Made by a program: the position numbers and the translations under genes
Notes under the pieces: generated by a model
Told to the model about the DNA's origin: nothing
Database searches by the model: none
What the model saw: only the letters and a program-made list of their open reading frames with translations
In this document: in pieces, positions 2 to 62,660 of the stretch
Position numbering within the stretch: position 1 is the stretch's first letter
How the letters are laid out: every line of letters starts with the position of its first letter
Sequence record: OZ346151.1
Length of the DNA stretch: 64,000 nt
Direction: 5' to 3' (one strand)
Source of the DNA: a phage

Positions 2-1465
2 AACTGTGGATGTGCAAACGCAGTAGATACTTTTGCAAACAATGAGAAATTTATCCGTAGCTACGGAACAGTGGTCCTTGCAATGGACAACGATGCGGCT
101 AACGAGGTAGAGAAGCAAAAACACGTTATCAAAGGTGTTGAAGCCACACATAATATTGCAGCATTTTTGATGGCTGACAACGTTTACCACGTGGAATATC
201 CTGGCGAGGTAAACGACCCTGATGGTGTAAAAGATATCCGTGACATGCTGAAGGCTAAAAAGCTGGAAGATATTGTAAACATGTTCCGGCATCCTGTTAA
301 GTATGTGCCTGATGCTGTGTCGGATTTAGAAGACTTCTCTATCGAATCTTTGCGGAAAAAGACTTCCAACGGGGTAGATATCAGCGCAGAGTTTCCAAAA
401 CTGCAAAAAATGCTAAAAGGCTTGCACAAAGGGACACTCGTAATGCTTACAGGTCCATCAGGAGGTGGTAAAACAACTGTAGCCAAAAAACTGGAACACT
501 GTATTGCAAGATACCTAATGGACCCGACATGTCCAAAGGCCGATGACTACGAAGAGGATGATCGTCTATGCATGATTCATCTTGAGGAGGACCCAGAGGA
601 AGCAATTAACTCCTTGTATGCAAACCAGTTAGGGTTTGATGTTAAAGAGTTTGTTGAAGATCCTAGCCAGTTTTTAACTGATCAAGAACATGCAGAGATT
701 CACCAATCATGGGCAAAAGCTGGAAAAATCAAAGTGTTCAAACATTTCGGGTCTATTCCAGTGGACGAGTTGATTACCAAGCTTAAGCAAATGGTTTGCC
801 TGTACCATTGTCGCTATATTGTGCTGGATCACCTGTCTATGGTAATTTCAGGGCTTAATGTTAAAGATGAGCGAAAAGAACTGGACATGGCTATGACTCA
901 GCTGGCTGCGTTTTGTAAGCAGTTTAACGTGTTTATCTTGGTGATCGCTCACCTCAAACGTACAGAGATTGTGCCTCCTAAGGACAAGGATGGTAACCCA
1001 TTACCTTTCTGGTATCCTGTGCGAAAAGAGAATTTGCGAGGATCGGCTGGGCTTGAACAGTTGAGTTGGGTAGTCATAGGTGTCGAGGCCGAAGAAATGG
1101 TGGATCGTTCTCGTGGGCGTGTCCGTCTGGTAGGTCTTAAAAACCGTCCAGCAAAAACTTTAGGTATTGCTGACACTTTAGTTATGGACCCACATACAGG
1201 TAAGTTCCATGATGCCAGTAATTGGTACTGGGACAAAGAAATGCAGATGTTTACAGACGGAGAAGGTGGGGAGGTTGTTTGGAGACCTCAGGCCATGTTT
1301 GAGGACCAAGAGCATGCAGTTGTAGAAACACCTATGGGCAAGGTTGTAGCCGATAAGGTTGTAACTCCTACTATTAAGCCTGTTGACACGCAGGAAGACC
1401 TTCAGTACGATGATCCATCCTCTGATCCGGTCCCCGGTTTTGAGGATGATGAAACACCTTTTTAA
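2..1465 (+). CDS. primase-helicase (T7 gp4-like), 5'-partial
   Basis: Frame open from window edge (no upstream stop); Toprim-like LAMDND motif; Walker A GPSGGGKTT; DnaB-type helicase region; acidic C-terminal tail ending FEDDETPF. Confidence 0.85.
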   Translation, partial: NCGCANAVDTFANNEKFIRSYGTVVLAMDNDAANEVEKQKHVIKGVEATHNIAAFLMADNVYHVEYPGEVNDPDGVKDIRDMLKAKKLEDIVNMFRHPVKYVPDAVSDLEDFSIESLRKKTSNGVDISAEFPKLQKMLKGLHKGTLVMLTGPSGGGKTTVAKKLEHCIARYLMDPTCPKADDYEEDDRLCMIHLEEDPEEAINSLYANQLGFDVKEFVEDPSQFLTDQEHAEIHQSWAKAGKIKVFKHFGSIPVDELITKLKQMVCLYHCRYIVLDHLSMVISGLNVKDERKELDMAMTQLAAFCKQFNVFILVIAHLKRTEIVPPKDKDGNPLPFWYPVRKENLRGSAGLEQLSWVVIGVEAEEMVDRSRGRVRLVGLKNRPAKTLGIADTLVMDPHTGKFHDASNWYWDKEMQMFTDGEGGEVVWRPQAMFEDQEHAVVETPMGKVVADKVVTPTIKPVDTQEDLQYDDPSSDPVPGFEDDETPF

Positions 1466-1523
1466 TGTTTAACAAAGAGTGGGAGGGGTAGTACAACCGC
1501 CTCCCCTTTAAGGAGAACTGTAT

Positions 1524-3947
1524 ATGAGCATGTGGTCGTTCGACTTTGAGTCATCCGGTTTGCTGGAAGACCCAGATCTTTATTATCACTGCGGCCTGTT
1601 TAAAGAGCTGAATAAGAACCGTTTTATGCTGTTCCTTCCTCTAAATGACCGCACACACTACTCCGAGGAGGATATAGAAAAGGCTAAGAACTTCATTCTG
1701 GCAAAGAAAACTCTTTATAAAGATTTTGAAGTTCGCATAGCAGATTTTTCAGAGTTGGAAGGTTGGCTTACAGGAAATTCTGACTGGTCACCAACAGCTT
1801 TGAACTGCCATAACTGCTACAGTTATGACTTTATGCTGATGGAAAGATTATCTGGTATTCATTTTGATATGTTCCGTGATCCTAAGTGTATGGGGACTAT
1901 CAACGATCACCAGGTTAACCTGTTTGATACGTTGGCGATGAGCCGAATCTTGTGGCCTGATCGCCCTTTACCAAAAGGTTGTCCGGACTCTGTATTCAAC
2001 CCGGTTACTAAGAAAATGCAGCCTGTTGGTCCTCACGGCCTTATGGCATGGGGCTACGCCCTTGGTAACCAGAAAGTTCAAATTGATGACTGGCGCGATC
2101 TTCCGTTATGGAAGTATGTGGATCGTGTATTTGAGGACGTTATCATCCAGGAGCTGCTCTGGAAAGAGCTGGTAGCGGAATCAAAAGGTGTATTCTACGG
2201 CAAATCTGACATGCAGAACTTTATGTACGATCCTGCCAAAGAGAAGCCGAAAGGGTTCAAGAAGATCACCTGGAAGAACGCATTACGTCGAGGCATGTTG
2301 CAGCACTTCCTGATGGAGCTGCAGGCCCGTCAGGGTGTATACTTCGACATAGATGGGGCTATTGCTTTACGTGACCGCTGCGATGCGTGGATGAAAGAGA
2401 TCGCTGATCGTGTTGAACCACAACTGCCTTTAAAAGAGCTGTCAATGTCTCAGCGGCCCAAGTTCCCTGAAAAGCCGTTTAACCAAGATGGGACAATCTC
2501 TAATAATGGTTGGAAATGGTTAAAAGATAAGCTTGGCTATCCTGTGGACATGAGTGCTTTAGAGTTCAAAGCCCCACCTAAGCGAGCATTTACCTCTACA
2601 GGAGATGTCAGTAAGATGGGGATAAAATGGTGTGAAGAGATGGGCTGCAAAGACCACGATAAGATGGCTGATTTCTTGAGAGGTTATATTAAGGGCACCT
2701 CCACACCACAACCTTTACCTAAAGAGCTGATGGATCAGGCAATAAGCGATCTGCAACAGAAGCGAATGCCTGACTGCAAGATACCTATGAAAATCAGCAA
2801 TCAGGACGACATTAAGCGATACCTGATCAGTGCTGGTTGGCTTCCGACAATGTGGAGAACTAAGGATGTAACTAAGGACAGCAAGAAGAAAGCTCTACCT
2901 GATGCAGATGTTGATGCACGAGTATATGCATACATGGACGAGCTTTTAGAGTCAGAGTATTGTGACCTAATTATCAACTTCTGGAACAAAACTGATGCTA
3001 AGTTTCAGACAACAGTGCACAAGTTCCGAAGCTTTCCTAACTCCGAAAGGATTAAAAAGGAAGTGTTCGGGAAAATACGCAGAAAAGCCAGGGCACTTAT
3101 TACTTCTCCGCAACTGAAAGATACGTTTGGACACCTATGTCCGAATCTTGAAAAATTGAACGGAGAGATGGCTAAAGATATCGTCTTGTGGTTATCATTG
3201 CGAAACCGCAGATCGGTCCTTGATCCAATCAAGGAGGATAAGGTTGATACTGGTCTTCTTAATCACCCACGTTTGAAGATTGACCATAAGCTTCCTGCTA
3301 AAAGCTCTGGATTAACAAACACTTCCCGACAGAAACACAGTATTTGTGCAAACATGCCTAAACCATCTCCTAAAGTGGTTATGGGTAAAGAGATGCGTAG
3401 CTTGTGGGGTGTTCCTCCTGGATACTTTGAGATCGGTATTGACGGGTCCAACTTAGAGCAGCTTATCGGGGCTTGGGGTGCCTTTGAGTTCGACAACGGC
3501 TTGTACTATGATGTTGTAAGTAACGGGGACGCACACCAAAACAATGCTGAGGCATATACAAAAGTAGCAGGCAGAGAGGTGTCTCGTAACGACGGTAAAC
3601 CTATCACGTATGGGGTTATGTACGGGGCACAAAAAGATAAAGTTGCAGATATGCTGGATATCTCCCCAGAGTTGGGGCAAAGGGTGATCGATGCACTTTG
3701 GGATGCCAACCCAGGTCTTAAGGGGCGCAAAGAGGATCTGGAGAAATTCTGGGAAGCAACAGGTAAGAAGTTTATCTACTCTTTTGATGGTCATGCTATC
3801 TGGACCCGATCTAAACACTCTTTACTTAATGCATACCAACAAAATGGCGGCGCATCGTTGTGTGACTTAGTTGGGATACTCATGCACCATCAAATGGTGA
3901 AGCGTGGGTGGTACGATGAAGGTGTTCGTCGTATTATCTATTACCAT
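1524..3947 (+). CDS. DNA polymerase, family A (T7 gp5-like), exon 1
   Basis: SD AAGGAG before ATG 1524; exo motif FDFESSG; pol motif A IGIDGSNLEQ; motif B KPITYGVMYG; ORF stops right after ...IIYYH, i.e. before motif C. Confidence 0.85.
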
Positions 3948-4789
3948 AAATAACATTGTGGCTTCGTGCAGTGATGCACGTCGAAAACCTCTTTAATTGA
4001 CGGGAAGGCTAAGTTGACTTTTACACCTAAACATGGTAAAAGCTCAATATGCTAATCCGCAGCGAAGACTAAAGGGGTGTAGTTAAAATGGCTAGATCAG
4101 TTGAGTATCACGGATATACCGTGTTTGATGATGGAACAATACCTTTATCGAAACGTGATCATACAACAATGTTTTGTTTTGATAATGGTCGAGGTTACCT
4201 TTGCGTAACCATGTTCATCGAGGGGAAGCAGTGCACAAAAGGTGTCCACCACTTGGTTGCTGAATGCTTTGTATCAAACCCTGATCCTGAAAGGCTCACA
4301 TGGGTGAACCATAAGGACGGAAACAAATACAACAATGCATACTGGAACCTTGAATGGACCACCCCTGGTGGAAATATCAAACACGCTTATGATAATGACC
4401 TCAGAGTAAGGCCAGTCGGTGAGTATAATGCCAACGCTGTACTGACCGAGGATGAGGTAACGGAGATTTGCGAACTGTTACAAAGTGGTTTACGACAATG
4501 CGAGATTAGGGATCTTGGGTATCCTTATGAGACGGTCAGAGCCATAAAGCAAAGAAGACAGTGGAAACATATCTCTAAAAACTACACCTGGTAGTAACGT
4601 TCAGAGACTATCGAAAGCATAGCGCCAACATAAATTGGTGCGAAGAAGCGAGTAGAGTAGACCAGCAAGTGCGGTCGAAATGGGAGGTGCCTTGGTAACA
4701 AGGTAGTGAGATAGTCCGATCCATACAGGAAACTGTATGGCTGTGCACGTAATGGTGCGGGGTAGCTTAACGACCTACCTGAACTATTG
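3948..4789 (+). mobile_element. putative group I self-splicing intron in DNA polymerase gene, carrying HNH homing endonuclease ORF
   Basis: Exon 1 ends ...YYH after a U (3947); downstream frame resumes DEYQLQV...GRNWGDCH, restoring motif C (YHDE) and the family A C-terminus; possible P1 pairing exon CCAU with intron GUGG (3958-3961); G at 4789 precedes exon 2; boundaries +/- a few nt. Confidence 0.65.
4088..4594 (+). CDS. HNH homing endonuclease (intron-encoded)
   Basis: HNH motif ...VNHKDGNKYNNAYWNLEWTTPGGNIKH; own start and stop inside the polymerase interruption. Confidence 0.8.
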   Translation: MARSVEYHGYTVFDDGTIPLSKRDHTTMFCFDNGRGYLCVTMFIEGKQCTKGVHHLVAECFVSNPDPERLTWVNHKDGNKYNNAYWNLEWTTPGGNIKHAYDNDLRVRPVGEYNANAVLTEDEVTEICELLQSGLRQCEIRDLGYPYETVRAIKQRRQWKHISKNYTW

Positions 4790-12340: not shown

Positions 12341-12586
12341 ATGAACAAAGGGTGGACATTTGTAGACGGCGTTAAAAACATGCCTCTAGGAAAGTATATT
12401 GTAGCCATGGCAGATGAGAATGGCAAGGTTGATTTCGGAGTTTGCGAGGTTGTTCTTGCAGGATCTGGTGACTATGCTCACAAAACTGGGATAATTAACG
12501 GTCATTTCTACTTTGATTACAACCCTGTTGTGGCGTATATGGCTATGCCAGAGTTCGAGCTCCCAAAGGAAGGTGCAGATGTTTAA
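12341..12586 (+). CDS. hypothetical protein
   Basis: SD AGGAGA before ATG. Confidence 0.5.
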   Translation: MNKGWTFVDGVKNMPLGKYIVAMADENGKVDFGVCEVVLAGSGDYAHKTGIINGHFYFDYNPVVAYMAMPEFELPKEGADV

Positions 12587-12776
12587 GCTTAAATCTGCAT
12601 GGAACATCGCTGTGGGGGACGAGATCCGTATCCCAGGTGGAAAGACCATTATGAAAATATCTCGTATCGAGTACGAAGGTGATCGTGTATTTCATATCTT
12701 TGCAGAAGATGGTCGAGAGATTTATATACAGGTAGGATCTCACATCTATATTCGTAAGAAAGGGGAGGACAAATGA
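12579..12776 (+). CDS. hypothetical protein
   Basis: SD AAGGAAGGTG before ATG 12579. Confidence 0.45.
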   Translation: MFKLKSAWNIAVGDEIRIPGGKTIMKISRIEYEGDRVFHIFAEDGREIYIQVGSHIYIRKKGEDK

Positions 12777-13102
12777 CAGAGATCATCATTTCAACTGCAG
12801 GGTATGTATTCCTGACAATCATTGCACTGGCTATTTTGGTGACAGTGTATGGGTTTGTTATCCTTCCTATCCTTGAGACATTTAGTTTGTGTCGGTGTTG
12901 GAGAAAAGCTTACGGTCCACAACCATGGAAGGACTGGCCCCACCTGGTGCGCTTAGCGTTCTCTTATGCTTACGATCACTCCAGTAGTGCATGCATAACC
13001 GGATACCACGCCCACAACTGGAGCTGGGAAGGGTTGAGGAAATGGAATGTTACAAAGACCATACCTCTGCGCATGTACAAACCTAAAAACAAAGACAACT
13101 GA
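12773..13102 (+). CDS. hypothetical membrane protein
   Basis: SD GGGGAGGA; N-terminal hydrophobic helix. Confidence 0.5.
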   Translation: MTEIIISTAGYVFLTIIALAILVTVYGFVILPILETFSLCRCWRKAYGPQPWKDWPHLVRLAFSYAYDHSSSACITGYHAHNWSWEGLRKWNVTKTIPLRMYKPKNKDN

Positions 13103-14280
13103 TACTTGAAAATTCCTGGCATATCAAGTATAAGGGGGATTTCTAAAATGGATTTCCTCCTTTTGATATTTCACCGGGCTGGATATTTTAAAATTCTTAG
13201 AAAATCAGAAAATGGATCGAAAACTAAAATGGATTTTTCAGAGTAGGCGCGACAAGCTGAATAACTCATCCTATCGTTTGCACCATATTCCAGGCCACCA
13301 TTATAGATTTCCCACACATGCTAACCTCTCCCTACTAGAACTTCCTCCACTTACCCTTGACCTTCTATGGTAACAATCTAACCGCTATCTTGAAGTTGCG
13401 GTGCAGCTTTCCAGGTACTCGATCTACTTTTCATTTCAGGGCTTGGATTTTCTGAAAATTTTTCTCGATAAATTTCTCAGTACTCGATCTGTTTTTCGTT
13501 TTCTGAATCGGATTTTCTGGAAATCGTTCCGGCTCTCAACCTGAAATTTTTGGGGACGAAATCGATTTTTCGTTTTCAGAAATGGATTTTTAAAATTTCT
13601 ATATGGGAATATTTTAGTGGATACTGTTTTATAGGAAATTGTTACGGAGGGTAATTAGCATGCTAATTAAATTTATTAAATGCGAGGAGTTCTCATTTAG
13701 AATTTTGAATGATAATCATTCTCGTTTGCAGAATAACGGGCAGGCCCGGTGATTGTCTCCCGGCCCCTGTTGCCCCGGCTTGTTATTATAGTATCACACA
13801 GGACAAAGAAAGCAAGGACTTTTTGCATAAATTTTTAAATGATAATGATAACCGTTCTCATTTTATGCAGCGCCCATCCCCGGTGGTTGTCTCCCCCGTC
13901 ACCGGTGCCTGCCGTCCTTTCGATATGTATATTGTGCCACCTGGCGGGGCCGCTGTCAACACTTTTCAAAAAATTTTTCTAACCTGGTGCGCTAACCGTT
14001 GCAACCTGGCGGGGCCAGCCTGGCAGGACCTAACTGACCAGGTAGGGGAGAATGAAGGCTTGTAAACCTGGTGGGCCTATGCTACAGGATAGGTAACAAT
14101 TGAAGAGGAGGTACAAAAATGATATGATCCCCCTGGAAAATGTAGCTATTAATGACTCTGAGGCTATCGCCCTGGTTGAAAAGGCTATGGCGGGAGCGTT
14201 GGAACATAAAGAAGAGTACGAAAATGGTGGTTAACCTGGCGGGGGCGGCAGGTGGATTCTATCATAAAAATAATTTAAAA
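13103..14280. repeat. non-coding repeat-rich region (AATGGATTTT-type repeats, ~45-bp direct repeat, ACCTGGCGGGGCC repeats)
   Basis: No RBS-supported ORF; multiple short direct repeats seen by eye. Confidence 0.6.
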
Positions 14281-14286
14281 TAGTAG

Positions 14287-14315
14287 TTGACAACAAGGTT
14301 AATCATGGTATTATT
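14287..14315 (+). promoter_or_regulatory. sigma70-like promoter
   Basis: TTGACA, 17-bp spacer, ATTATT. Confidence 0.5.
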
Positions 14316-14364
14316 ACCCTACAAGGTGAACAACACCGCACTAACCAGTAAAGAGGATAAATTT

Positions 14365-14562
14365 ATGAACGCATACGGGATCAAAGTACGTCGCAACACT
14401 CGCCAGGTGGTCACCAATCAAGTGATTTGCCGGGTGGATGTAACCATCAACAACGGGCAAGGCCTTTATAAATTTCGTCGCGGTCATAGCTATACCCTGC
14501 AACAGCTTAATCGTTGCGCCCTGACAAAAGGTCAGATCAACCACTGGTTTAATAAAAAATAA
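14365..14562 (+). CDS. hypothetical small protein
   Basis: SD AAGAGGAT before ATG 14365. Confidence 0.5.
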   Translation: MNAYGIKVRRNTRQVVTNQVICRVDVTINNGQGLYKFRRGHSYTLQQLNRCALTKGQINHWFNKK

Positions 14563-14565
14563 GTA

Positions 14566-14594
14566 TTGACATACAGTCAGACACCAAATACACT
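14566..14594 (+). promoter_or_regulatory. sigma70-like promoter
   Basis: TTGACA, 17-bp spacer, TACACT. Confidence 0.5.
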
Positions 14595-14626
14595 AAAAGC
14601 ACAAAAGACACTAAGAGGATAAAATC

Positions 14627-14812
14627 ATGAAAACCACTACCTTTAATTTTGATAATGCAGACTTTTCTTTTTCTGATGTCAAGAACTGCCGCCGTGATCG
14701 TGGATTTTACAAGGCTTATAATCTGGTGGGCCTGGACGATGACAATAATTTGCACGAAGTAGCTGAGATCCAGCTTGACAGATTGGACGGGAAAGTACTA
14801 AAAACTTATTGA
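14627..14812 (+). CDS. hypothetical small protein
   Basis: SD AAGAGGAT before ATG. Confidence 0.5.
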   Translation: MKTTTFNFDNADFSFSDVKNCRRDRGFYKAYNLVGLDDDNNLHEVAEIQLDRLDGKVLKTY

Positions 14813-14813
14813 G

Positions 14814-14859
14814 TTTATTTTTAGATGGCCTTGACACCAGGGCCATCAATAAAGTAAAC
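14814..14859 (+). promoter_or_regulatory. 45-bp repeated promoter/operator element, copy 1
   Basis: TTATTTTTAGATGGCCTTGACACCAGGGCCATCAATAAAGTAAAC; dyad GATGGCC/GGCCATC flanking an embedded TTGACA. Confidence 0.55.
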
Positions 14860-14892
14860 TAACCACAGTTGAGCGGAAAAGGAGGCTTAAAG

Positions 14893-15012
14893 ATGAGCAC
14901 TACACGCCAGCACACAAAGGTAACCATCATCGTTTGCATCATTGGGTACATCCTGGCGCAAATGTTGATGGGTAGCGCCAACGGTGTCGCAAAATTTTTC
15001 TTAAACTTTTAA
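14893..15012 (+). CDS. small hydrophobic peptide (39 aa)
   Basis: SD AAAGGAGG before ATG; predicted single TM segment IIVCIIGYILAQMLMG. Confidence 0.45.
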   Translation: MSTTRQHTKVTIIVCIIGYILAQMLMGSANGVAKFFLNF

Positions 15013-15040
15013 TTGACAAGCTAACTTAAATCGATATAAT
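15013..15040 (+). promoter_or_regulatory. sigma70 consensus promoter
   Basis: TTGACA, 16-bp spacer, TATAAT; leader hairpin GGGAAAACTTCCC follows. Confidence 0.6.
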
Positions 15041-15091
15041 AAGCACATAAACGGGAAAACTTCCCAGAACACACAAAAGGAGAAAAACACC

Positions 15092-15433
15092 ATGACTACT
15101 ATGACCGCCTCAGAAAAAGCTATGCAGATCGCTGAACTGAAAAAACAGATCGCAGACCTTGAGAATAAGATCGATAACTTTGAAATCGACGAGGACAAGT
15201 ACGACGAAAACTATGATGAATGGTTAGACGAGATCTACGGCGAAATTATGATCGGAAACATTTCTTTTCTTCCGTCGCGTATCCTCAAGGAGCTAGATCC
15301 TATCGCTTACCGCTGCGGATTTAGCGACTACATCGACAGCCTGGATATTGAGGACGATGAAGAATACCAGGAATTACAGACAGAGTTAGAAGAAGCAAAA
15401 GAAGAGCTTGCGGAGCTGGAAGAAAACGAGTAA
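15092..15433 (+). CDS. hypothetical acidic protein
   Basis: SD AAAGGAG; strongly acidic, predicted helical. Confidence 0.55.
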   Translation: MTTMTASEKAMQIAELKKQIADLENKIDNFEIDEDKYDENYDEWLDEIYGEIMIGNISFLPSRILKELDPIAYRCGFSDYIDSLDIEDDEEYQELQTELEEAKEELAELEENE

Positions 15434-15480
15434 GCTTATTTTTAGATGGCCTTGACACCAGGGCCATCAATAAAGTAAAC
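15434..15480 (+). promoter_or_regulatory. 45-bp repeated promoter/operator element, copy 2
   Basis: Identical to copy 1. Confidence 0.55.
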
Positions 15481-15522
15481 TTTATACTGTTAACACTGAA
15501 CTAATGCATAGGAGTTAAAACC

Positions 15523-19766: not shown

Positions 19767-20051
19767 ATGGCTATTGTTACCGCTGGCGATGTAGTAGAAA
19801 TGGAAGCAAAATACTTAAAAGCGGGTATGCATATCCTACGCAACGATCTTGAACTGGTCCTGACAATGGTTGACTATAACCCAGGGCAAGATTATCCAAG
19901 TGTTGACTACTTTTTTGAGTATGTTGATGAAGAGTTGAAAGAGGATGAGGCCTATTGCGGTGAGTTCTGCAACTTCTTTTGTCCTGATGAGGTTGTAAAG
20001 GTTATCTATCAACCTGGCGTAGCTTTCCCGCTGCACGCTATCAATAAATAA
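19767..20051 (+). CDS. hypothetical protein
   Basis: SD AGGAG before ATG. Confidence 0.5.
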   Translation: MAIVTAGDVVEMEAKYLKAGMHILRNDLELVLTMVDYNPGQDYPSVDYFFEYVDEELKEDEAYCGEFCNFFCPDEVVKVIYQPGVAFPLHAINK

Positions 20052-20055
20052 ACCT

Positions 20056-20080
20056 GGCGGGGGCCTTTTCGGCCCCCGCC
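20056..20080 (+). terminator. GC-rich perfect hairpin (terminator-like, no clear U-tract)
   Basis: GGCGGGGGCC-TTTTC-GGCCCCCGCC. Confidence 0.4.
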
Positions 20081-20114
20081 TGAAATTATGAAAAATAAAA
20101 AGAGGCAAACTATC

Positions 20115-20949: not shown

Positions 20950-22980
20950 AGCCGCCAGATCTCAGAATTTACGTACGCTCACCAGTCTATAGCCTGCTAA
21001 GTATTTATTCCAACCATAGAATAACGGAATAGTCAATACCTGCATAAAATAATTATTCGTGTAAACTGCATAACATAAATCGGCTAGGATGTCAACATTT
21101 TTCGTAAACAGCTCGAAATTATAACGGTGAGTTATAATAAACAGAGAAATCTTTAGTCGTCTAATGTTTACTGTACATTACTATACTGACTGGAATCATT
21201 AGATGACTAAGAGAAAGATAAGAAATCATTAACAATGCAATTGTTTTATTCGTAACAATAAGGCAACTATGCAAACGGATGGCATGGCGCGACGGAGTCG
21301 CGACATAATATAAAAGCAGTAACCATCACCCCCGTGATAGTTTGTCTGCAAACTATTAATCAGATCATAGTTGCCTTGTATTTAGTTAATCATGACATAA
21401 CAAGCAAGGCAACTATAGATCTGCTAATAGTTGCCCTGCTTTTATATTATGTCATAGATTATTAGCCTGTTAATTGTTAGTCAGTCAAATCAACAACGTT
21501 ATCATTTCAGTCTTTATTGTTGTTGATCGTTATTGTTATCATGCAAACGAATGGCATGGCTTATCATTTTTGAGTAAACAATCTATACGTGAACAGTGAG
21601 GCATGCAATAGTAAGGGCGGGAATAATGAGAGTGTAAACTGTCAAGGGTAATGTCAATTATATCAATCGTGTCAGTTATGTCACCATTATGTCAGCAGAG
21701 TTTTTCTCCTCTTTGTCAAGTGCTGCATGCCCACACAAATAGTAAGAAATATAATTGTTATGTGCGTAAACAGTAACTCATGTTATCAATCCCTGTATGT
21801 ATCGCCAGTGGTGCGCATAATGGGTATTATGTTAAATTGCCCGTAATGATAATGGTTCTCACAATGATAGGTATTCTCATTCCCCCACACAAAATAGATT
21901 GCAAATGTTGTGCCACTATGTGAACGGCCTCACCTATTAATTTGCCTCACTGCCTCGATATTTGAGAATTATCATAAGAATGAGAAGTATTCCCATTTCG
22001 TCCGCCTGGCAGCACTCCAGTCGCTACGGCTCAGAACAGGGCAGAATTGTGTCCATTCAGATATTTCTGTCTGGCTCTTCAGGTCTGTGTGGGAAAAGTC
22101 CACCTCTCTGGCGGGGCATGGGGTCATGACGGGAAAATTGCAGGTCAATTAAAAAATTTACGTGGTGTATGAAGCGCTCTTCAGGTAAGGCATGTATTAT
22201 GGGATGAAACCCTCTTCAGGCAATGATATTTGTGGGTGTGATATTTGCTGGAAAGCCAGATATGACGGGACTCCCGGCGGGGCAGGGGTAGTACAGACAG
22301 GGGAAATATGGAGGATGTGGTTAGGTGAATTGATCAGACAGGTAGAGTATGGAATATGTTACAGGTATGTTAAATAGGGCGGCTGAATATCTGTAGGATT
22401 TGTGTGTAAAATCAAAGACTTAAGTGGTGTTGTGGTATTTTCTATAAATAATTCAAGTTTAATAGGTAATATTTGTCTCTATTCGCTTTGTGTGGTAAAC
22501 AGATTCAGATGAGATTGGTTTACAAGCGTATACATAATATACAAATTAAAGATACAAGAAACCCCCCTCCCCCTTCGGCTACCATTCACCTTTTCCTCTG
22601 ACTGGTACTTAAACACTTATTCAGACTCTTCAGGTTATCACCCATATATCATATGGCAGTGACTGGTGTCCTCCGGCCCCTCTTTCGTCACCCGTCCGCT
22701 TCGCCATGCTAATGCCATAGCCAATGGTTCGGTTGTTCACCCTGTTCACTCAGGTGTATCTCCATACCCCTTCAAAACGAAGAGAACAGAAAACCCGAAT
22801 TACTCGGTAAAAGAAAAGAGAAGAACTTAATTTTATCAGGATAGGCAAGAATGTCAAGGCATGACTGCTCACTAAACAAGCAAACAGTCATGTGTGGGAG
22901 GTAAGTGATTGTGGTGGTAGGAAATTTAGTTGAAAGATGTGTTATAGGTGCTTCCAGCACTTTAGCCGGGCAGCTAATTG
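20950..22980. repeat. ~2 kb non-coding, repeat-rich zone at the convergence of the plus and minus transcription blocks
   Basis: No RBS-supported ORFs; 20-bp near-identical repeat ATGCAAACG(G/A)ATGGCATGGC at 21268 and 21540; AAGGCAACTAT/ATAGTTGCC inverted copies 21258-21440; clustered TGTCA and CTCTTCAGG repeats. Confidence 0.6.
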
Positions 22981-61746: not shown

Positions 61747-62097
61747 ATGAAAGATGGGGATAAGCTGCTATATCTTAAAGTCCCCCTTGAAATACTATCT
61801 ATGTCAAAAGTTTTGAATGACACAACTGGGGAGGTTGTTGTTCTTGACTTGTATGACAAGATCGTATACTGCTACCTGCACAACTGGTATAAGCTTGGAG
61901 GAAATTCACGCTTCACACCAAGCACAAGGAAAATTGCAGCAGATGTTGGGATAAAGAAAACAAAAGCAGCAGCGTGCGTTAAAACTTTAGAATGTGCAGG
62001 AGTGGTTGAAACATCCACACAAGGGAGAGGTAAAAGATGCACATTTTCCAAAGTTTTGCCACCAGAAGAAGTTATTCGGATGTCAACAACTGGTTAG
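61747..62097 (+). CDS. putative winged-helix DNA-binding protein (initiator or repressor)
   Basis: SD AGGAGA; wHTH-like segment RKIAADVGIKKTKAAACVKTLECAGVVE; followed directly by palindrome array. Confidence 0.5.
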   Translation: MKDGDKLLYLKVPLEILSMSKVLNDTTGEVVVLDLYDKIVYCYLHNWYKLGGNSRFTPSTRKIAADVGIKKTKAAACVKTLECAGVVETSTQGRGKRCTFSKVLPPEEVIRMSTTG

Positions 62098-62173
62098 ACC
62101 AGTAAAAACTTAAATATCTGTACTATAAGGATTCGTATGTTTTATGTTCGCCATGGAACGGATACTATTAACT

Positions 62174-62252
62174 GTCCGTGATACGGACACTACTGTCCGT
62201 CACGCGGACACATCTGCCCGTAATACGGACACTAACTGTCCGTGATACGGAC
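62174..62252. repeat. four phased 15-bp palindromes (iteron/operator array)
   Basis: GTCCGTGATACGGAC (62174), GTCCGTCACGCGGAC (62195), GCCCGTAATACGGAC (62216), GTCCGTGATACGGAC (62238); spacing 21-22 bp. Confidence 0.75.
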
Positions 62253-62261
62253 ACATAAAGA

Positions 62262-62385
62262 ATATAACTAAAATAACTAAATAATAAAAAATAAAAGATC
62301 TAGTACTTATGGTACTAAGTACATATACTTAACTTATGTAGAATATACTAGATCCTAAGTACCATGTTTTAAATTTATTACTTAC
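62262..62385. repeat. AT-rich region with large imperfect palindrome
   Basis: AGATCTAGTACTTATGGTACTAAGTAC...TACTAGATCCTAAGTACCATG inverted symmetry. Confidence 0.55.
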
Positions 62386-62660
62386 TATGGGCAGTGTCGG
62401 CCCTTCATTGGCACTCGCCTACGAGGGGGCGAGATGCCGGGCCTCCTTGGCGCACACAATAACAGAAGTTCATACATGCAGGTCTGTTAACATGTGTGGG
62501 AGCGAAGCGATAGCGCAGGCCAAAGGCCGAGCACTGATGTGGACCACCGACGAAAGCTTGCCAGCGCCGTAAGGAGTCGGTTGAGAGTCTCCCGCGCGAG
62601 CTTGGATGAAGTTTATGTGTGGAAACTGACAAGAAGGCCCCTAAATCGCTCCACAGCTAT
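62386..62660 (+). ncRNA. candidate structured non-coding RNA (GC-rich, ORF-poor)
   Basis: Visibly GC-richer than flanks; several short stems (e.g. CTCGCC...GGCGAG); no RBS-supported ORF; strand undetermined. Confidence 0.3.

Follow-up and report, generated by a model that had tools for sequence, protein, structure and literature searches.

Enterobacterales share an E. coli-type Fur box, and the box of mntH was reportedly defined by Patzer and Hantke in 2001. The Fur operators of mntH, iucA and ryhB combine a 19-bp consensus with 7-1-7 inverted repeats, 6-bp overlaps and tandem arrays. Real Fur clusters are built of 7-1-7 inverted repeats with overlapping sites 3 or 6 bp apart, and Fur sites lying downstream of promoters exert weak repression in E. 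coli (PMC2189734). The clusters at fecA and fepD-entS, located between promoter and start codon, offer a roadblock-type parallel to the locus described here, as do roadblock repressors proper (PurR at purB, lac O2), whose operator lies, as here, tens of bases downstream of the start of a constitutive-looking promoter. A second group of relevant systems comprises phage replication origins, where promoters point into an AT-rich segment (the T7 primary origin 1.1A/1.1B, T4 oriF and oriG) or direct repeats lie beside an AT-rich stretch (the lambda-type origin). The genome map of phage rV5 contains a 'non-coding' box, stated to be without ORFs (Kropinski et al. 2013, PMC3606486), which is probably the same locus as ours; repeats, promoters, Fur boxes and conservation are not analysed in that paper, whose study of skew found no origin. 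For this locus, our literature search turned up no account of Fur boxes, of an origin or of RNAs.

We analysed a 64-kb stretch of phage DNA (OZ346151.1, hereafter the window), whose source is a Vequintavirus, an rV5-like myophage of E. coli. The original prediction had described positions 13103-14280 as non-coding and rich in repeats. This holds for 13103 to about 14100, but not beyond: a small gene follows, which begins at 14119/14124 and has a strong Shine-Dalgarno sequence. The repeat blocks are at least as conserved as the flanking genes: across 10 Vequintavirus genomes, conservation reaches 0.96-1.0 in blocks 13130-13230, 13447-13606 and 13687-13966, as compared to 0.93-0.95 in the flanking genes. 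At least 80% of it is covered in 102 of 122 matching records, and an exact-pattern scan of IMG/VR for further Vequintavirus copies returned one contig. Outside the genus, the first unit alone (about 13660-13816) is recognisable, in Seuna-, Certre-, Mydo-, Henuna- and Avunavirus as well as in Phapecocta- and Justusliebigvirus, and it is intergenic every time. The region is best explained as a conserved, protein-free control region, flanked by rightward middle/replication genes on one side and by a rightward early promoter array on the other. The 'replication block' said to adjoin it lies elsewhere, as the genes for a DnaB-like helicase and PolA are found at 71-3953, about 9 kb upstream. The features of the locus are the following, where Part A denotes a module present in two tandem copies.

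13133-13245, no strand: Section 1, a cluster of A/T-rich boxes of AAATGGATTT type at 13146, 13210 and 13227, with a GATATTT pair at 13165/13182
13260-13400, plus strand: C-rich, G-poor spacer (46 C, 15 G; GC skew -0.6 to -0.37)
13405-13590, no strand: three iteron-like units of 65-74 bp, each with GTACTCGATCT (or AATCGAT), TTTTC(A/G)TTT and GGATTTTCTG in that order
13560-13680, no strand: AT-rich stretch (25% GC), ranking second in AT content among 120-nt segments of the 64-kb window
13678-13729, no strand: Fur-box-like operator cluster 1, with a weak box at 13678-13697 and strong overlapping boxes at 13705-13723 (15/19) and 13711-13729
13702-13823, minus strand: Part A copy 1, with promoter-like hexamers TTGCTT (13815-13810) and TACTAT (13793-13788), a 16-nt spacer, and TATAAT 3 nt further on
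13705-13734, plus strand: possible rightward promoter of uncertain status, TTGAAT, 18-nt spacer, CAGAAT, with a Fur box in the spacer
13838-13862, no strand: Fur-box-like operator 2, GATAATGATAACCGTTCTC at 13841-13859 (16/19), 7-1-7 core at 13846-13860
13843-13959, minus strand: Part A copy 2, with promoter-like hexamers TTGACA (13959-13954) and CACAAT (13936-13931), a 17-nt spacer and an upstream TG
13939-14246, plus strand: five GC-rich (A)ACCTGG(C/T)G motifs, at 13939, 13982, 14004, 14066 and 14234
14124-14234, plus strand: small protein gene at the right edge, outside the non-coding element, start at 14119/14124, Shine-Dalgarno AGGAGG at 14107-14112

All four repeat classes initially described are present where they had been placed, in numbers above chance: 78 positions of the region fall in repeated 9-mers, against a median of 12 and a 95th percentile of 40 in stretches of the same size. 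The A/T-rich box AAATGGATTT occurs exactly at 13146, 13227 and 13580, with near copies at 13210, 13506 and 13559 (five matches at up to one mismatch, 0.19 expected), and GGATTT is found six times on the plus strand (0.35 expected). The supposed 45-bp repeat is genuine but is not limited to two copies, the family consisting of three 47-57-nt units at 13405, 13470 and 13544, spaced by 65 and 74 nt. The two '~90-bp units' correspond to a single module of about 120 nt in two copies (13702-13823 and 13843-13959), whose 17-nt cores are 94% identical. Finally, ACCTGGCGGGGCC has two exact copies (13939, 14004) and two copies with a single mismatch (14234, 20052); about 0.005 such matches would be expected in the region. 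Tandem Repeats Finder recovered a trivial 12-nt array alone.

Section 1 is 97-99% conserved in the 10 Vequintavirus genomes, and boxes of the same type also stand at the start of the corresponding intergenic region in Seunavirus, Mydovirus, Certrevirus and Henunavirus. Conservation drops to 0.70-0.91 in the C-rich spacer, which might be a Rho-utilisation-like tract for rightward transcripts or the source of a purine-rich leftward RNA. It rises again to 97-100% in block 13447-13606 of the iteron-like array, and relatives harbour at the corresponding position three to seven units with the common core (G/T)(T/A)CTCGATCG. The A/T-rich boxes and the three 65-74-bp units may together be binding arrays for some DNA-binding protein. 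A perfect palindrome, TAATTAGCATGCTAATTA, occupies 13652-13669 within the AT-rich stretch. The GC-rich motifs vary in copy number through 24-48-nt deletions between copies (FV3, BP9, HMD-6, S127). In relatives, this motif fills the spacers of sigma-70 promoters, both in PVP-SE1 and EC152 (TTGCAT-CC(T/C)GGCGGGGATCGTG-TACTAT) and in phiTE (TTGACA-ACCTGGCCGGGCC..-CACAAT), and its copy at 13939 sits inside the promoter spacer of Part A copy 2. The ACCTGGCGGGGCC motifs could be promoter-spacer or operator elements common to other promoters of this phage group.

Part A is found across Vequintavirinae and Stephanstirmvirinae, and each copy comprises a minus-strand sigma-70 promoter, a leader of about 60 nt with an invariant GAGACAAnCACCGG motif, and Fur-box palindromes. 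The original prediction had read these units on the plus strand and missed the leftward promoters and the palindromes, their most informative features. In copy 1, the leader core CCCGGTGATTGTCTCCC (13745-13761 on the plus strand) is followed by operator cluster 1; the copy is 96-100% conserved in 10 Vequintavirus genomes and is retrieved by a profile built from other genera (nhmmer E = 9e-22). In copy 2 (E = 3e-6), the leader core CCCGGTGGTTGTCTCCC (13879-13895) is followed by operator 2, and the promoter scores 10/12 in a promoter scan and is 100% conserved in 10 genomes. A leftward promoter was found ahead of every Part A copy; the TTG of its -35 and its -10 positions are invariant across genera, with a variable spacer. 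These promoter-like hexamers are predicted to drive leftward transcription. The minus sense is also favoured by G-U pairs in the closing stem and the hairpin, and GC skew is reversed over 13740-13980. The fold z-score of copy 2 is -2.3 on the minus strand and -1.6 on the plus strand. Solitary second copies in other genera retain promoter, leader and box with no iteron array.

Fur boxes are recognised by their match to the 19-bp consensus GATAATGATAATCATTATC, typically of at least 13-14/19 (consensus quoted in PMC8970401). The palindromes of the region match it at 15/19 (13705) and 16/19 (13841), and the FV3 counterpart of the latter scores 17/19. Their architecture is also that of Fur clusters: the strong boxes of cluster 1 overlap 6 bp apart, with a 7-1-7 core TGATAATCATTCTCG at 13710-13724 (one mismatch), and a 6-bp register characterises both the 13705/13711 and the 13841/13846-47 overlaps. 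Positions 13710-13728 agree at 19/19 bases with a segment of the E. coli mntH promoter that lies 63 nt before the mntH ATG (3923 records), a promoter that we take to be Fur-regulated. Apart from this 19-nt match and one phage genome deposited as a plasmid, the region showed no homology to E. coli chromosomes or plasmids. Operator cluster 1 is invariant among Vequintavirus genomes, and relatives carry one to four tandem boxes at the corresponding position. A box of 14-16/19 was detected in 10 of the 11 related loci scanned, from seven genera; POP15 gave a borderline 14/19 on one strand, and three Fur-like palindromes are visible in its sequence. Sites with up to two mismatches number seven in the 64 kb, against 1.55 expected, and six of these seven fall in two non-coding clusters.

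A second Fur-box-like cluster lies inside the terminal repeat of the phage, whose position is given below. Similarity between that repeat and the present region is at the level of motifs alone.

Our best model, to which we assign a probability of roughly 40%, is that the repeats include leftward non-coding transcription units gated by host Fur. The host sigma-70 promoter of each autonomous copy would fire leftward on the minus strand, with RNA polymerase starting near 13924 and near 13781, and the resulting G-rich leader of about 60 nt would present the invariant GAGACAAnCACCGG motif within a small hairpin. Further on, at about +55 to +85, polymerase would meet one or more palindromes resembling the site of Fur, the host iron sensor. 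With plentiful iron, iron-loaded Fur sitting at these operators would form a roadblock and yield short transcripts; when iron is scarce, read-through would proceed into the AT-rich repeat array (13680 to 13130), opposing incoming rightward transcription. The transcription, Fur binding, roadblock and downstream effect in this model are all inferred. Several observations speak against it: Fur sites downstream of promoters repress weakly in E. coli (PMC2189734), no minus-strand terminator was found, RNA structure in the module is weakly supported, and the predicted start of copy 1 is misplaced relative to the closing stem, as detailed below. The copies of Part A keep the Fur consensus and not the symmetry of RNA pairing, which argues that the palindromes act as DNA rather than as RNA. 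The main copy differs from known roadblock systems in having no coding gene downstream, so that what is regulated there would be either a non-coding transcript or an effect in cis. The phage sites also differ from enterobacterial Fur operators in that they occur in a virulent phage as candidates recognised by sequence, are placed downstream of the best-conserved (leftward) promoters and not over them, and recur inside the terminal repeat. The module lends itself to testing at its two predicted start sites, its three operators and the conserved loop of its hairpin.

The palindromes might alternatively be operators of a phage-encoded regulator, their resemblance to Fur boxes being convergent or incidental. 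Their consensus, AAATGA(G/T)AAnnnTTCTCATTT, is more uniform than that of host Fur sites, they cluster at the region and at the terminal repeat in both Vequintavirus and Mydovirus, and GATATTT pairs and CYGGCGGGGC are likewise common to the two places. However, the match to Fur extends to the 6-bp overlapping register and the 19/19 identity with mntH, and we found no candidate phage protein: the small minus-strand helix-turn-helix gene and the other ORFs that lie beside the module in relatives have no homologue in the window. The hosts of all these phages are, besides, Enterobacterales, a group with E. coli-type Fur boxes. We consider this alternative doubtful.

A different assignment of the same boxes would make them operators of Fur-repressed rightward promoters (13705-13734, and a second near 13840), from which an iron-responsive leader would run into the gene at 14124 and on into the early array; antisense regulators would then come from the leftward promoters. 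The boxes do lie in the spacer of this weaker, not universally conserved rightward candidate as well as at +55 to +85 of the conserved leftward promoters, and a box located exactly within a promoter spacer is the classical Fur arrangement (PMC2189734). Moreover, the gene at 14124 has a strong Shine-Dalgarno and lacks a good promoter of its own, and a like candidate (TTGCCC, 17-nt spacer, CACAAT) is present in the terminal repeat at about 21837-21865, overlapped by two boxes. The candidate promoter at 13705-13734 is found in most Vequintavirinae. Its status is nevertheless uncertain because the critical A in the second position of the -10 is replaced by T or G in Mydovirus (CTGAAT), phiTE and L027, and Phapecoctavirus lacks the -35, whereas the leftward hexamers are invariant; in addition, the site falls below the threshold of the promoter scan. 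This arrangement seems unlikely.

Would the leftward transcripts, rather than being gated by Fur, serve DNA replication? The region had been put forward as a candidate replication origin, a claim now weakened: classical origin features occur at 61.7-62.4 kb, and the module is found without iterons in relatives. The region is probably not the main origin. At 61.7-62.4 kb, a gene for a winged-helix 'replication initiation protein' is accompanied by four palindromic iterons and by the stretch with the highest AT content in the window (19% GC); this locus is the likely true origin. An auxiliary, transcription-activated origin could still be envisaged, in which leftward transcription from the tandem promoter pair enters an AT-rich unwinding element and then an iteron array, and the RNA primes replication or opens the DNA. 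As judged by sequence match, the promoters (minus strand, 13959-13931 and 13815-13788) do aim into the 25%-GC stretch (13680-13560), as in T7- and T4-type origins, and then into the three iteron-like units. The leftward RNA would be G- or purine-rich over 13260-13400, other genera keep this layout, relatives have GATC-rich arrays, and the phage encodes a T7-like helicase and a family A DNA polymerase, a further likeness to T7. Unlike T7 and T4 origins, the promoters here are of host sigma-70 type, Fur boxes are interposed, the repeats are 65-74 bp long and a separate initiator-plus-iteron origin exists in the genome. An iteron origin is expected to show at least three regularly spaced repeats of about 17-22 bp, an initiator encoded nearby and an AT-rich unwinding element. 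The region has the AT-rich element, but its 65-74-bp repeats are composite and unlike typical iterons of about 20 bp, and no initiator gene is adjacent. Direct repeats beside an AT-rich stretch also recall the lambda-type origin, a layout far better matched at 61747-62390. DnaA boxes are lacking, with TTATCCACA at up to one mismatch absent from 13103-14280. Given the complete classical origin elsewhere and the occurrence of the module without iterons, we regard an auxiliary origin as unlikely to be the right explanation.

We also weighed whether the units are genes for small trans-acting RNAs, whose conserved loop GAGACAAnCACC would be a seed pairing with host or phage mRNAs. The part of the original prediction that proposed small RNA genes is supported in part: a conserved minus-strand sigma-70 promoter stands before each unit, but RNA structure is weak and no terminator was found. 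Every unit has its own promoter, a conserved leader of about 60 nt and a hairpin with an invariant loop, and a neighbouring element of relatives, Part B, shows clear covariation. However, a Rho-independent small RNA would be a unit of 50-300 nt ending at a terminator, and no minus-strand terminator was found in 12500-15500. Part A itself shows fold z-scores of -0.2 to -2.7, RNAalifold retains one 4-bp stem, and the predicted start of copy 1 falls downstream of the 5' arm of the closing stem. Sites complementary to the loop are not enriched in the 64-kb window (4 versus 5.35 expected). Rfam 15 covariance models gave no match in the window at the gathering score and nothing meaningful even at E <= 5, nor any match in seven related loci, and ARAGORN detected no tRNA or tmRNA genes in the window. 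Genes for trans-acting small RNAs are quite unlikely. A pseudo-ToxI antitoxin mimic, after the tandem ToxI-like repeats of about 36 nt at the phiTE escape locus, was considered and set aside, the phiTE homologue of our region being at a different locus (39.6 kb).

Two readings can be dismissed as very improbable. A packaging (pac/cos) or terminal-repeat site, as suggested by the repeat-rich, non-coding character of the region, by the EC152 record beginning inside the homologous array and by the description of phiTE as circularly permuted (PMC3475682), is contradicted by the direct terminal repeat of EdH4 (458 bp, at both ends of its record, PMC6563267), which maps to about 21550-22006, 7.5 kb away, by the PhageTerm-defined 514-bp repeat of Klebsiella phage KPP-1, about 8 kb from the homologous module, and by the EC152 junction, which lacks 8 nt of one repeat unit and fits an assembly break. 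A protein encoded by ORF 13709-14065, called 'hypothetical' in sister phages and matching PHROG 14993 (E = 2e-64), a family built from these annotated ORFs, is at odds with a start codon inside a Fur box, with the lack of a ribosome-binding site that had originally been noted, with variable columns distributed 5/5/6 over codon positions without third-position excess, with frame-shifting A/T-tract indels, 24-48-nt deletions and variable ORF ends in the 10 Vequintavirus genomes, with inconsistent annotation of different ORFs on different strands, and with non-multiple-of-three indels and no conserved ATG in other genera. A small conserved plus-strand ORF inside Part A was rejected on similar grounds, its ATG not being conserved and indels shifting its frame.

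It is tentatively possible that, beyond the present phage, Vequintavirinae and Stephanstirmvirinae myophages have hard-wired host Fur into their infection programme. Conserved Fur operators would then gate non-coding units at the head of the early region and would also be placed within the terminal repeats, the timing of early transcription or of replication would be tied to iron, and at least two as yet undescribed RNA families would be encoded here (Part A and, in sister genera, Part B, a covarying pseudoknot-plus-hairpin). If this is true, it would be one of few instances in which a strictly lytic phage takes regulatory input from a host metal sensor. The rV5-like phages find wide use in the typing, biocontrol and therapy of E. 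coli O157, Salmonella, Klebsiella and Cronobacter, and their own regulation is barely known; should Fur truly bind, phage development would be tied to iron availability, which is low in the infected host and the gut, with a bearing on the outcome of therapy.

With regard to annotation, the analysis marks 'hypothetical protein' calls as spurious in over 100 genomes on deposit. The gene at 14124, by comparison, matches PHROG 21957 (E = 9e-21); its product is 36 aa long in the window, which carries a 7-nt deletion, as against 58 aa in FV3 and FFH2.

The window belongs to an rV5-like coliphage, a Vequintavirus, and 122 phage records match positions 13000-14400 (the top one, EdH4, at 98.6%), 102 of them covering at least 80% of that interval. 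On the rV5 genome map a grey 'non-coding' box without ORFs, probably the same locus, is drawn (PMC3606486); that paper adds nothing further on the box, and its skew analysis did not find the origin. We read the gene-free, repeat-rich region at about 13103-14100, tentatively and with a probability of roughly 0.4, as a conserved control region, lying where the middle genes give way to the early promoter array, in which Fur-type operators would gate a core of two leftward non-coding transcription units. Directly observed are the repeats and how well they are conserved, the missing coding capacity, the promoter hexamers and the matches to the Fur consensus; transcription, Fur binding and a roadblock by bound Fur are inferred. 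In the literature searched, no description of these control-region features (repeats, promoters, Fur-type operators) was found.

The region, its neighbours and its main elements (Part A is a module of promoter, leader and Fur-box-like palindromes):
71-1465, DnaB-like helicase, upstream of the region
1524-3953, family A DNA polymerase, upstream of the region
13702-13823 and 13843-13959, minus strand, two tandem copies of Part A
13815-13788, minus strand, Part A promoter TTGCTT-N16-TACTAT
13959-13931, minus strand, Part A promoter TTGACA-N17-CACAAT
from 14287, array of strong sigma-70 promoters with a small gene after each, downstream of the region

The repeat classes of the original prediction are all present and all non-random. 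Within the region, AAATGGATTT has five matches at no more than one mismatch (0.19 expected) and GGATTT six plus-strand copies (0.35 expected), ACCTGGCGGGGCC has three matches where about 0.005 are expected, with a further one at 20052, and 78 positions fall within repeated 9-mers, compared with a median of 12 for windows of the same size. Two of the units needed redrawing: the sequence described as a 45-bp direct repeat does recur, as a three-copy family with units of 65-74 bp, and the two 90-bp units are one module of about 120 nt in two copies. The non-coding stretch, put at 1.2 kb, holds up to about 14100, beyond which, at 14119/14124, lies the start of a genuine small gene preceded by a strong Shine-Dalgarno sequence. 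Its product has 58 aa in FV3, FFH2 and navn; this isolate carries a 7-nt deletion directly after the annotated start codon (14119-14126), so that translation would need the next in-frame ATG (14124), giving 36 aa. The ORF call at 13709-14065 had rightly been doubted: variable columns are distributed 5/5/6, with no third-position bias, A/T-tract indels shift its frame and 24-48-nt deletions truncate it in sister phages, and its annotation differs between genomes, the PHROG match being a mere reflection of those annotations.

Among ten Vequintavirus genomes, the best-conserved blocks (13130-13230, 13447-13606 and 13687-13966) reach 0.96-1.0 and the flanking genes, at 0.93-0.95, are no higher; the variable stretches are 13249-13446, 13967-13982 and 14023-14082. 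In six other genera, from two subfamilies, recognisable similarity (71-88% identity) is confined to about 13660-13816, and the homologues there are intergenic in every case. The region matched no Rfam family or tRNA, and a pseudo-ToxI locus as in phiTE was rejected as its identity. E. coli chromosomes and plasmids held no relative of it besides a match of 19 nt and one phage genome that had been deposited as a plasmid. The latter, PLSDB entry CP057073.1 (137,565 bp, a Vequintavirus-like length), matches the region at 93%, and 16-18 'Campylobacter phage' records (MG0656xx) show 93-98% identity to E. coli Vequintavirus genomes over it; all are probably mislabelled records or contaminants.

The aligned loci of relatives comprise a module of about 330 nt, divisible into Part A and a neighbouring element, Part B. 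Part A, taken in the minus-strand sense, consists each time of a sigma-70 promoter, a leader of about 60 nt in which a GAGACAAnCACCGG motif is invariant and a small stem varies, and between one and four AAATGA(G/T)AATCATTCTCATTT-type palindromes. Across relatives the TTG and -10 positions are invariant and the GC-rich spacer is variable, and the leftward promoters are kept in all relatives compared. In Mydovirus, among others, a rightward candidate (TTGAAT-N18-CAGAAT, with a Fur-like box inside its spacer) lacks the key -10 base, and in Phapecoctavirus it lacks the -35. The closing stem and the hairpin contain G-U pairs that favour the minus sense, and GC skew is locally reversed over Part A. 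Support for RNA structure is weak (fold z-scores of -0.2 to -2.7, a 4-bp consensus stem left), and no minus-strand terminator was found within 12500-15500. Mydovirus and other relatives have solitary second copies some 7 kb away from the main one (homologous loci L058 4974-5084, L017 4309-4419, L027 1172-1286, L041 4012-4120 and L020 5439-5535), with promoter, leader and Fur-like box and in the direction of the neighbouring genes; since no repeat or iteron array lies downstream of them, Part A is an autonomous module.

Scored against the 19-position Fur consensus GATAATGATAATCATTATC (PMC8970401), the Part A palindromes match at 15/19 and 16/19, and at 17/19 in FV3; neighbouring matches overlap with an offset of 6 bp, a spacing that is the cluster signature of real Fur sites (PMC2189734). 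A scan of the 64-kb window for the 7-1-7 pattern (no more than two mismatches) gave seven sites versus 1.55 expected, two in the studied region and four within the terminal repeat. In 3923 records the mntH promoter of E. coli has, 63 nt before the start codon, a stretch identical (19/19) to positions 13710-13728. At this box Fur reportedly represses mntH, a result ascribed to Patzer and Hantke (2001). Variant copies of the palindrome retain the Fur consensus and not RNA-pairing symmetry, and a DNA-binding protein is therefore the likely reader; this reader may be host Fur or a phage protein. Under the preferred reading, Fur bound there would act as a roadblock to leftward transcription.

Leftward of both Part A copies follow, in order, an AT-rich 120 nt (25% GC, the window's second most AT-rich), the three 65-74-bp units, a tract C-rich on the plus strand (46 C, 15 G), and the AAATGGATTT boxes with GATATTT boxes; the A/T-rich arrays might be binding sites for a protein. 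In relatives the order of parts is identical and the repeat units are related (core CTCGATCG) yet diverged. The T7 primary origin and T4 oriF/oriG have promoters aimed at an AT-rich element, as the tandem promoters here face one. Of the proposed replication origin, an auxiliary role is the most that survives, because the region has no DnaA boxes and a far better fit lies elsewhere:
61747-62390 locus, winged-helix protein of 116 aa (Pfam HTH_36/DUF6945; PHROG 12838 'replication initiation protein', E = 5e-80)
62169, 62190, 62211 and 62233, four tandem iterons of 21-22 bp directly after that gene, each a TGTCCGTnAnnCGGACA palindrome
after the iterons, the window's most AT-rich 120 nt (19% GC)
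Conserved in 119 Vequintavirus records, this locus is, from its sequence, likely the true origin.

A packaging or terminal-repeat role did not survive. Terminal redundancies of 458 bp are reported for EdH4 and HdK5 (Korf et al., PMC6563267), and the repeat at both ends of the EdH4 record maps to 21550-22006, not to the studied region; likewise, in Klebsiella phage KPP-1 about 8 kb separate the PhageTerm-defined 514-bp repeat and the homologous module. The terminal repeat mapped from EdH4 holds a second Fur-like cluster, and KPP-1 also has one at its terminal repeat:
21847, 21865, 21963 and 21981, Fur-like boxes, in pairs 18 bp apart
about 21837-21865, candidate promoter TTGCCC-N17-CACAAT, overlapped by two Fur-like boxes
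Just beyond the repeat, at 22060-22290, are motif kinds of the studied region, namely GATATTT(G) pairs (22060, 22225, 22240) and C(T/C)GGCGGGGC (about 22105 and 22275). KPP-1 has a weak Part A copy immediately outside its terminal repeat and, at a distance of about 80-100 bp from that repeat, two copies of AAAATATCA (L073 about 1712-1740). The record of Enterobacter phage EC152 is cut inside the homologous array, in its first repeat unit (L003 position 1/L070 end), with 8 nt (TACTCGAT) missing at the junction relative to GAP31; this resembles a break in the assembly at a repeat and not a mapped terminus.

Part B (about 130 nt; L004:2590-2760 in PVP-SE1, same place in L002, L003, L005-L010, L067 and L073) carries a minus-strand sigma-70 promoter of its own. 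Found in Seuna-, Certre-, Mydo-, Henuna-, Avuna-, Phapecocta- and Justusliebigvirus, it is absent from the window and from Vequintavirus. Its covariation is strong: 91.4% of cells are paired versus 84% in shuffles (0/500 reach 91.4%) and 23-46% in slid controls, with A-U to G-C swaps in a long hairpin and a possible pseudoknot (CGCC/GGCG with CCCC/GGGG, swapping to CCAA/TTGG or CCAG/CTGG); it has no Rfam match. A small minus-strand gene adjoins it in Certrevirus and Phapecoctavirus (L067 3250-3681, L002 2814-3080, L010 2320-2586), encoding a protein whose conserved LGWQGGTVHQVA..TGL motif looks like a helix-turn-helix. At that place Seunavirus has a 60-aa ORF unrelated to this gene, and Vequintavirus has neither.

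ACCTGG motifs, copies of which are gained and lost through deletion, occupy sigma-70 promoter spacers in relatives and would be promoter-spacer or operator elements; AACCTGGYG has six copies in the window, all on the plus strand. In relatives, several promoters near the module (for example L004 about 2615-2640 and L058 about 4745-4765) have a tandem TTTGTAAAGAnnTGTAAAGA immediately before their -35; it reads CTTTACA twice on the opposite strand and could be an UP element or activator site. At 20049-20085, the ACCTGGCGGGG motif is the 5' arm of a perfect 10-bp GC hairpin, AACCTGGCGGGGGCCTTTTCGGCCCCCGCCTG, which follows the end of a gene at 20051 and so looks like a terminator.
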